A stretch of DNA of 29,958 nucleotides from Labilithrix sp. GTDB lineage: Bacteria > Myxococcota_A > Polyangia > Polyangiales > Polyangiaceae. The translations under genes and the position numbers were made by a program. The stretch covers positions 1-29,958 of the forward strand of contig JAHBWA010000114.1 in NCBI GenBank assembly GCA_019637195.1. Reading direction: 5' to 3'. Position 1 is the stretch's first letter. Every line of letters begins with the position of its first letter. Below, piece by piece: positions 11,991 through 12,163 of the stretch. The notes beneath the pieces are model-generated. The model made no database searches. It had not been told where the DNA came from and worked only from the letters and a program-made list of their open reading frames with translations.

Positions 11991-12163
11991 CAGCCACCGG
12001 CGCCGCCGATCGAGGAGCCTTGGGCCGTGGTCCGCGAGCAACCGCGGACCAGGCACCGACGCGCTCGAGGAGCCTTGGGCCGTGGTCCGCGAGCAACCGC
12101 GGACAGCCACCGGCGCCGCCGATCGAGTAGCCTAGGGCCGTGGTCCGCGAGCAACCGCGCCCC
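11991..12163. repeat. Three tandem copies of a 55 to 59-nt unit, each holding an 8-bp inverted repeat GGTCCGCG-agcaac-CGCGGACC. The third copy is degenerate.
   Basis: Core cgaggagccttgggccgtggtccgcgagcaaccgcggac at 12011..12049 and 12066..12104, with a variant at 12123..12160. Flank cagccaccggcgccgccgat at 11991 and 12105. Palindrome arms at 12029..12036 and 12043..12050. The array lies in the divergent intergenic region and runs into the FMO start. Confidence 0.8.

Follow-up and report, generated by a model that had tools for sequence, protein, structure and literature searches.

Tandem triplication of a gene-start module at a flavin monooxygenase gene in a Labilithrix genome

What are hairpin-forming repeats doing at the very start of a gene, and where do they come from? 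The question is raised by a contig of a Labilithrix sp. metagenome-assembled genome (MAG; Myxococcota), 29,958 nt long and of 64–77% GC throughout, to which we refer as the window. Three head-to-tail repeats lie there in the 393-nt intergenic region between 2 divergent genes, one encoding an alpha/beta hydrolase and the other an FMO-like flavin monooxygenase (FMO), and the last repeat supplies the FMO start codon. The original prediction had recognized this arrangement, which holds, and had offered 3 explanations for it: an iterated operator for a dimeric repressor, an RNA attenuator in the 5′ leader, or an element like the repetitive extragenic palindromes (REPs) that had captured the gene start. 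Our analysis supports a different answer, with a probability of about 75%, namely that a module of about 58 bp, holding the probable promoter box and the start of FMO, was triplicated in tandem in one lineage, which makes the array an ordinary promoter tandem repeat and neither a mobile element nor a conserved regulatory structure. The origin by duplication, the origin of the palindromes at the duplication junctions and the restriction to a single locus are the demonstrated points.

Duplication of the native FMO start

Tandem Repeats Finder reported a single array at 11984–12159, with a period of 55, 3.1 copies, 87% matches and a score of 289, and a repeat search placed three 56-nt copies at 11991, 12046 and 12104, spaced by 55 and 58 nt. 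Identity to copy 1 is 96% for copy 3 and, in ungapped register, 77% for copy 2, the lower value reflecting a 5′ half that has diverged and is 4 nt shorter. When the unit edge is defined at the boundary between CGCG and GACC, the head-to-tail units span 11988–12159 on the plus strand and measure 59, 55 and 58 nt, whereas the original prediction gave about 57 nt for each. Unit 1 (11988–12046) has the native upstream flank as its 5′ half and carries GAGGAG at 12012–12017, GAGCCT at the −10 position (12015–12020) and a pseudo-start GTG at 12027. Unit 2 (12047–12101) carries GAGGAG at 12067–12072 and GTG at 12082; its last 40 nt do not differ from those of unit 1, its 5′ half shows 3 substitutions and a 4-nt deletion, and no donor for this diverged half was found elsewhere in the window. 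Unit 3 (12102–12159) is the copy of ancestral type, which keeps GAGTAGCCT as the single-copy orthologues do and supplies the FMO start.

The string GTGGTCCGCGAGCAACCGCG occurs once in each unit, at 12027, 12082 and 12140, each time in a different frame. Only the GTG at 12140 is in frame with GAGSSG, the Rossmann motif of FMO, and the frame is closed upstream by a TAG at 12128; between this stop and the Rossmann motif, no ATG, GTG or TTG other than 12140 is available. The original prediction was right on each of these points. The array consists of at least 2 head-to-tail copies of a 10–100-bp unit above chance, which is what defines variable-number tandem repeats (VNTRs) and promoter tandem repeats. 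Moreover, the 22-nt palindrome of the units, with at most 3 mismatches allowed, occurs 3 times in the window, compared with 0.01 expected from shuffled sequences, and all 3 occurrences fall within the array.

We looked for related loci through a scan with the 18-mer GGTCCGCGAGCAACCGCG, through protein homology and through contig look-ups. Labilithrix sp. ACE_MYX10 (L018) carries the orthologous locus with a single copy of the unit, which is its FMO start (MVREQPRPPAHV...), and with the gene order of the window (hydrolase, FMO, SpoIIE-like phosphatase, glycosyltransferase). Further single-copy loci are L120, which has the L018 allele, L121 (GCA_019637225.1), and L122 and L123 (GCA_019637215.1). 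L122/L123 is the closest relative, and its intergenic region aligns with that of the window almost end to end. All these loci share the order hydrolase, FMO, SpoIIE-like gene, and in each of them the one copy serves as the native FMO start. This is the ordinary, non-repeated start that, by the original prediction's own reckoning, argues against the functions first proposed. The alignment (A2) displays a clean 113-nt insertion in the window relative to its relatives, corresponding to the 2 extra units, and the sequence preceding unit 1 is homologous to that preceding the single copy in L122, L120 and L121. Over 47 nt, unit 3 matches the single copy of L122 and L123 at 98% identity. Copy number therefore differs between related genomes, 3 in the window allele and 1 in L122/L123, L018/L120 and L121, and the comparison identifies the single copy as the ancestral state, since all 3 outgroups are single-copy.

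The duplicated module would extend from about −46 to +20 around the FMO start codon, including the probable −10 box TAGCCT, the GTG and the first 6 codons. As read from the sequence, the duplicated segment is flanked by CGCG on each side (gacgCGCGgacc ... caacCGCGcccc), and the CGCG at 11984–11987 forms a 4-nt microhomology with the CGCG that ends each unit. Such flanks are what slippage or unequal exchange at a short direct repeat leaves behind, and the module was probably copied by slipped-strand mispairing or unequal recombination between 2 CGCG sites, one at 11984–11987 and the other after AGCAAC.

The intergenic region as a whole appears slippage-prone, as indicated by 3 further observations. 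A 23-nt tandem duplication lies at 11800–11845 of the same intergenic region (AAGGCGCCGC[T/C]GCATCGAAGG[C/T]G, twice), where L122, L120 and L121 show a gap and have apparently at most 1 copy. L121 carries a (GGGCAC)x6–7 microsatellite in its intergenic region, at about 2890–2935. In L018 (468–497) and L120, a 15-nt in-frame duplication affects the FMO N-terminus, which reads HVDPARAGP compared with HVGP.

The hairpins were the most striking feature of the original description, and the units are indeed hairpin-capable, but the 8-bp inverted repeat attributed to them is perfect only at the junction of copies 1 and 2 (12029–12050). There, junction hairpin 1 (12028–12051, plus strand) has a 9-bp stem and a 6-nt loop, with a folding energy of −17.9 kcal/mol (z = −5.7). 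Junction hairpin 2, between units 2 and 3 (12085–12104, plus strand), has a 7-bp stem and −13.6 kcal/mol (z = −3.4). The stem at the true start, in unit 3 on the same strand, is the ancestral one and weak, with 4 bp and −7.8 kcal/mol (z = −1.0); its fold does not differ significantly from that of shuffled sequences, and its energy equals that of the single-copy start of L122. Stem strength thus declines along the array.

How could duplication generate such stems? The ancestral segment would have begun with CGCGGACC and had GGTCCGCG right after its GTG, so that its ends were already mutually complementary. When the native end ...GGTCCGCGAGCAACCGCG meets the GACC of a following unit, the 4-bp mini-stem CGCG-agcaac-CGCG would grow to 7–9 bp. 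The junction palindromes are strong because the segment ends (CGCGGACC and GGTCCGCG) were already inverted repeats. In agreement with this, neither CGCGGACC nor the junction string GAGCAACCGCGGAC was found upstream in L018, L120, L121, L122 or L123. Being confined to the junctions and absent from the single-copy relatives, the palindromes are by-products of duplication and not conserved sites.

An older inverted repeat is visible upstream of the array. The repeat and pattern scan found its arm "a", GGTCCGCG, at 11946–11953, and its arm "b", CGCGGACC, can be read directly at 11984–11991, where it forms the 5′ boundary of the duplicated segment; both are on the plus strand, and the whole (11946–11991) has the form GGTCCGCG...N30...CGCGGACC. 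Arm "b" also pairs with the GGTCCGCG at 12028–12036 (inverted repeat I24). In L122 (2918–2965) the 2 arms read GGTCCTCG and CGAGGACC, which amounts to one compensatory change from G-C to T-A. As a conserved hairpin this stem is no more than a candidate: its fold is not significant compared with shuffled sequences (z = −1.6), and L120 and L018 lack the region of arm "a". For the 261-nt region as a whole, folding is somewhat better than in shuffled sequences (z = −2.4).

Promoter DNA, RNA leader or operator

Does the array lie in promoter DNA or in a transcribed leader? The TAGCCT at 12128–12133 (plus strand), whose TAG is the in-frame stop, is a candidate −10 box of a leaderless FMO promoter. 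TA[AG]CCT stands 6–7 nt ahead of the FMO start in the window, L122, L120 and L121, and in these 4 alignable loci no part of the intergenic region is better conserved than the block CGAT[CG]GAGTA[AG]CCT, which immediately precedes the start. Among more distant FMO orthologues, L130 has TAACGT-N8-ATG and L132 has TAACAT-N9-ATG, and L128 has a GGAGG Shine-Dalgarno sequence instead. Within the window, TANNNT-N6-GTGG occurs once, at the FMO start, and among the candidate starts TANNNT at −12 is found only for FMO, the hydrolase and one other gene, several others having clear GGAG-type sites.

The hydrolase gene points in the same direction. Its TACGCT (plus-strand 11753–11758) stands 6 nt before the GTG, and TA[CG]G[CA]T-N6/7-start (11744–11758 of the window, minus strand) is present in 7 of 7 orthologous loci, including L120, L121 and L122 and the distant L128, L129 and L130; by comparison, this motif hints strongly at a leaderless promoter in Labilithrix. 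In several loci, a TG[AG]CGG-like box was also seen 16 nt further upstream of this motif. In high-GC bacteria, TANNNT about 6–7 nt before the start codon marks a leaderless transcript, as is established for Actinobacteria. A literature search found no survey of leaderless transcripts in myxobacteria. The conservation of TA[AG]CCT in otherwise divergent intergenic DNA leads us to infer that the FMO transcript, as well as that of the hydrolase, is probably leaderless, and with a leaderless FMO mRNA the array would belong to the promoter DNA upstream of the transcript instead of to an RNA leader.

The state of each unit can be read in this light. Units 1 and 2 share 2 differences from the ancestral GAGTAGCCTGGGG, a T-to-G that gives GAGGAGCCT and a G-to-T at the next variable site. 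The T-to-G turns TAGCCT into GAGCCT and at the same time creates GAGGAG 9 nt before the GTGs of both units, so that it may represent a dead −10 box or a gained Shine-Dalgarno sequence, 2 possibilities that the sequence does not separate. As a promoter tandem repeat, only the promoter-proximal unit 3 would keep the ancestral signals together with the frame and so be the working start, and units 1 and 2 would be decaying pseudo-modules in which the shared T-to-G weakens the −10 box and incidentally makes GAGGAG. The present effect of the array, if any, is most likely a modest, copy-number-dependent change in promoter strength, by analogy with what has been proposed for the promoter tandem repeats of Mycobacterium tuberculosis.

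Several points weigh against this interpretation. The leaderless model is drawn from motif conservation only; a conserved −35 element was not seen for FMO, and a sigma-70 consensus scan of 11600–12300 returned no promoter at all, a result that is uninformative for this organism of 72% GC. GAGGAG followed by GTG is a good Shine-Dalgarno arrangement and would fit a leadered, translated array equally well. Unit 3 carries a private G-to-A change at 12134 that creates a TAG in the frame of the unit-2 GTG; with the ancestral G, which L122, L120 and L121 have, this frame would run for 465 codons, to 13479, instead of 17. Such a private stop looks selected and hints that the upstream starts are used. 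The copies are also mosaic: unit 1 has its 5′ half in common with unit 3 and its 3′ part, 40 nt without a difference, in common with unit 2, which in turn retains an ancestral A. Two simple duplication steps would not explain this pattern without gene conversion; the pattern implies gene conversion or repeated unequal exchange, and no unique order of duplication events could be reconstructed. Finally, dispersal within the source genome was judged from the 30-kb contig.

If the array were instead part of a transcribed 5′ leader, it would act at the level of RNA or translation, and units 1 and 2 would be real initiation sites of the form GAGGAG-N9-GTG. The 17-codon open reading frame (ORF) from the unit-2 GTG (MVREQPRTATGAADRVA, 12082–12135, plus strand) ends with the TAG at 12133–12135, 4 nt before the FMO GTG, and could deliver ribosomes by termination-reinitiation to an FMO start that has no Shine-Dalgarno sequence, the hairpins tuning the upstream starts. 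The position of GAGGAG 9 nt upstream of both GTGs, the derived G-to-A that closes an otherwise 465-codon frame, and the stability of the 2 junction hairpins together with the folding of the 261-nt region all fit such a leader. Against it, the arrangement is missing in all single-copy relatives and could only be a recent neo-function. The ancestral start, without Shine-Dalgarno sequence, has a conserved TANNNT 6 nt upstream, which makes transcription start likely at the GTG itself, downstream of the array. Moreover, the unit-1 GTG opens a 197-codon out-of-frame ORF whose translation would be wasteful. An attenuator of the kind first proposed finds no support either: no Rfam family matched 11500–12500 at E ≤ 1, no terminator-like site was found in 11600–12300, neither hairpin is followed by a T run, and the structure is not conserved in the orthologues. 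Altogether, we regard a function in a leader as unlikely.

A contingency locus can also be imagined, in which this environmental myxobacterium would switch FMO expression by gaining and losing copies of the promoter-plus-start module. The 2 TAGs of unit 3 and the T-to-G of units 1 and 2, which inactivates the −10 box and creates a Shine-Dalgarno sequence, would then be selected fixes that make a short coupling ORF and silent decoys out of the duplicated starts, and the locus would be a regulatory leader caught in the act of being built from a duplicated start site. We consider this at least as doubtful as the leader function.

An operator is a distinctly poorer explanation. The junctions do offer 2 near-perfect palindromes (GGTCCGCG-N6-CGCGGACC), 55 bp or about 5 helical turns apart, in a divergent intergenic region, as expected if a dimeric repressor or activator controlled the hydrolase and FMO promoters. 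On the other hand, junction formation fully accounts for the palindromes, their absence from the orthologous single-copy loci leaves no conserved regulator-operator pair, and at the real promoter there is only a degenerate version of 4 bp. No regulator gene is adjacent, as Pfam found no DNA-binding domain in 10 neighboring proteins, among them the hydrolase, FMO, the SpoIIE-like protein, the glycosyltransferase, the HATPase_c_2 protein and the STAS protein. We thus find the iterated operator very improbable, although a regulator encoded farther away is conceivable and the junction palindromes may have newly gained a regulatory side effect.

A single locus in independent read sets

We also considered whether the unit is a dispersed palindrome of the REP type, a bacterial interspersed mosaic element (BIME) or a miniature inverted-repeat transposable element (MITE), inserted in tandem and capturing the gene start. 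The extragenic location, the GC-rich imperfect palindrome and tandem units of a size typical of REPs or of mycobacterial interspersed repetitive units (MIRUs) would be in keeping with it. No other copy of the unit was found in the 30-kb contig, which is what the search of the source genome covered. Across 185,579 GTDB representative genomes, the 18-mer matched 118 stretches, one match in each, from nearly as many assemblies; a single unrelated archaeal MAG had 2, so that no representative genome had more than 2, and ACE_MYX10 has it once. Similarity extended into the flanks in L018 only, and the remaining matches, which share nothing further, fit chance in high-GC genomes. In 2 scans of JGI metagenomes, the 23-mer GCCGTGGTCCGCGAGCAACCGCG and the junction 21-mer GGTCCGCGAGCAACCGCGGAC had no match, so that neither the source organism nor a dispersed family is present in that set. 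The unit is the native, orthologously conserved FMO start in 3 related genomes, and the orthologous sites are not empty but occupied by one native copy. The direction of the proposed capture is hence reversed, the native start having been duplicated at one locus, and an inserted element has next to nothing left in its favor.

Results from other read sets showed that the array exists outside the MAG assembly. Contigs of 5 other SRA runs carry parts of it and break at its identical repeat stretches. The junction of copies 2 and 3 is present in independent Logan contigs from SRR30854913, SRR26512502 and SRR27749061, which start within the array and whose FMO is the same or has 2 residues changed. 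From the other side, contigs bearing the hydrolase gene (SRR12908345, SRR26512502) cross the intergenic region, enter unit 1 and stop at 12039 of the window, exactly the point from which copies 1 and 2 no longer differ.

Logan assemblies use k = 31. Both kinds of contig end fall exactly on 30-mers common to 2 units, as they should where a de Bruijn graph with k = 31 truly branches: the first 31-mer of L124 and L125 ends at the A that distinguishes junction 2/3 from junction 1/2, and the last 31-mer of L134 and L135 begins at the A that distinguishes unit 1 from unit 2. All 3 unit types occur in other read sets, and the array is real and common to several populations. An assembly artefact of the MAG contig is scarcely credible, for although short-read assemblers can mis-resolve repeats of 55–59 nt and every Logan contig breaks inside the array, the copy 2/3 junction recurs in independent contigs of 3 other runs and copy 1 in 2 more contigs, the contig ends behave as real graph branches, and the copies differ among themselves and are resolvable. 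One Logan contig of SRR30854913 (L001) begins with a remnant of an Illumina adapter (CTGGAGTTCAGCGTGTGCTCTTCCGATCT, positions 1–29) fused to unit 2, which is a read artefact and not genomic.

Gene setting and relation to known repeats

The FMO gene (12140–13525, plus strand) encodes a protein of 461 aa, identical to MBX3216099.1, that matches the Pfam FMO-like family with E = 1.8e-86; its N-terminus MVREQPRP is also found in the proteins P0124 and P0001. The divergent hydrolase gene (10655–11746, minus strand) starts with GTG and belongs by Pfam to the ABHD18-like alpha/beta hydrolases. Downstream of FMO lie genes for the SpoIIE-like phosphatase, a TcdA/TcdB-type glycosyltransferase, a HATPase_c_2 protein and a STAS protein. 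The window, L120, L124 and L127 have the glycosyltransferase gene (14347–15144 of the window, minus strand) between the SpoIIE-like and HATPase_c_2 genes, and L121 and L122 lack it, which amounts to a presence/absence polymorphism among close relatives. The ORF from the unit-1 GTG (12027–12620, 197 aa, unterminated) was rejected as a real gene, as its codon-position GC is that of FMO read out of frame (GC3 0.67 compared with 0.94 for FMO).

Elsewhere in the window, a gene at 5083–7857 (minus strand) encodes a 924-aa protein with the Pfam domains MVP_shoulder (E = 6e-14) and Vault_3 (E = 7e-7), resembling the major vault protein (MVP), in this myxobacterial MAG. A second and larger tandem array lies at 7994–8182, with either 9.2 copies of 21 nt or 3.1 copies of 62 nt at 96% identity (consensus GCGCCGGGAGTCGGCGACGGC). 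It occupies the intergenic region of a further divergent gene pair, made up of the MVP-like gene (start at about 7857, minus strand) and a gene starting at 8673 on the plus strand.

By analogy, the array at the FMO start belongs with promoter tandem repeats and VNTRs, and the closest known kind is that of the promoter tandem repeats of M. tuberculosis. These have units of 57 bp at dop, 54–56 bp at cysG-efpA and 58 bp at lpdA-glpD2; the lpdA and cysG repeats stand just upstream of leaderless promoters, dop has 1–3 copies depending on the strain, and copy number varies between strains as well as within cultures (PMC12817950). The Labilithrix array likewise belongs to a high-GC genome and consists of imperfect head-to-tail units, in the range of 54–59 bp, that immediately precede a gene start, and its copy number varies among close relatives (1 or 3 here, 1–3 for dop). 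In both cases the proposed origin is strand slippage or recombination, and short-read assemblies break or collapse at the repeats. Unlike those repeats, the Labilithrix unit includes the start codon and the first 6 codons, so that pseudo-starts are multiplied in 3 frames, and its junctions make strong palindromes; moreover, the organism is an uncultured myxobacterium.

MIRUs are direct tandem repeats of 40–100 bp, intergenic, oriented with the adjacent gene and containing small ORFs (PMC5056196), and form one sequence family at 41 loci with no obvious palindromes (Supply et al. 1997, in PMC5056196). The array resembles them in repeat size and in its small ORF, which has 17 codons and ends 4 nt before the downstream start, but its unit duplicates sequence native to the single locus at which it is found, and its junctions are palindromic.

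REPs are scattered elements with tens to hundreds of copies. With REPs and BIMEs the array shares a GC-rich imperfect palindrome in extragenic DNA, and these elements sometimes form tandem clusters too, but the Labilithrix sequence is restricted to a single locus, and the orthologous loci do not have its palindrome. As for the setting of the repeat, and not the repeat itself, TAGCCT-N6-GTG at FMO and TACGCT-N6-GTG at the hydrolase gene resemble the leaderless promoters of high-GC bacteria.

For annotation the locus calls for caution, as a hairpin-rich repeat at a gene start can mimic a regulatory element or a REP, and here the comparison with 3 related genomes reveals a simple local duplication with palindromes that arose at its junctions. 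It also provides a dated and polarized example, from 1 copy to 3, of how duplicated starts may decay or be neutralized; the relevant changes are the T-to-G in the −10 box and the new stop that cuts the out-of-frame ORF from 465 to 17 codons. The resemblance of this 55–59-bp unit, next to a probably leaderless start, to the phase-variable repeats of M. tuberculosis suggests that repeats of this kind may recur in high-GC bacteria beyond the actinobacteria.

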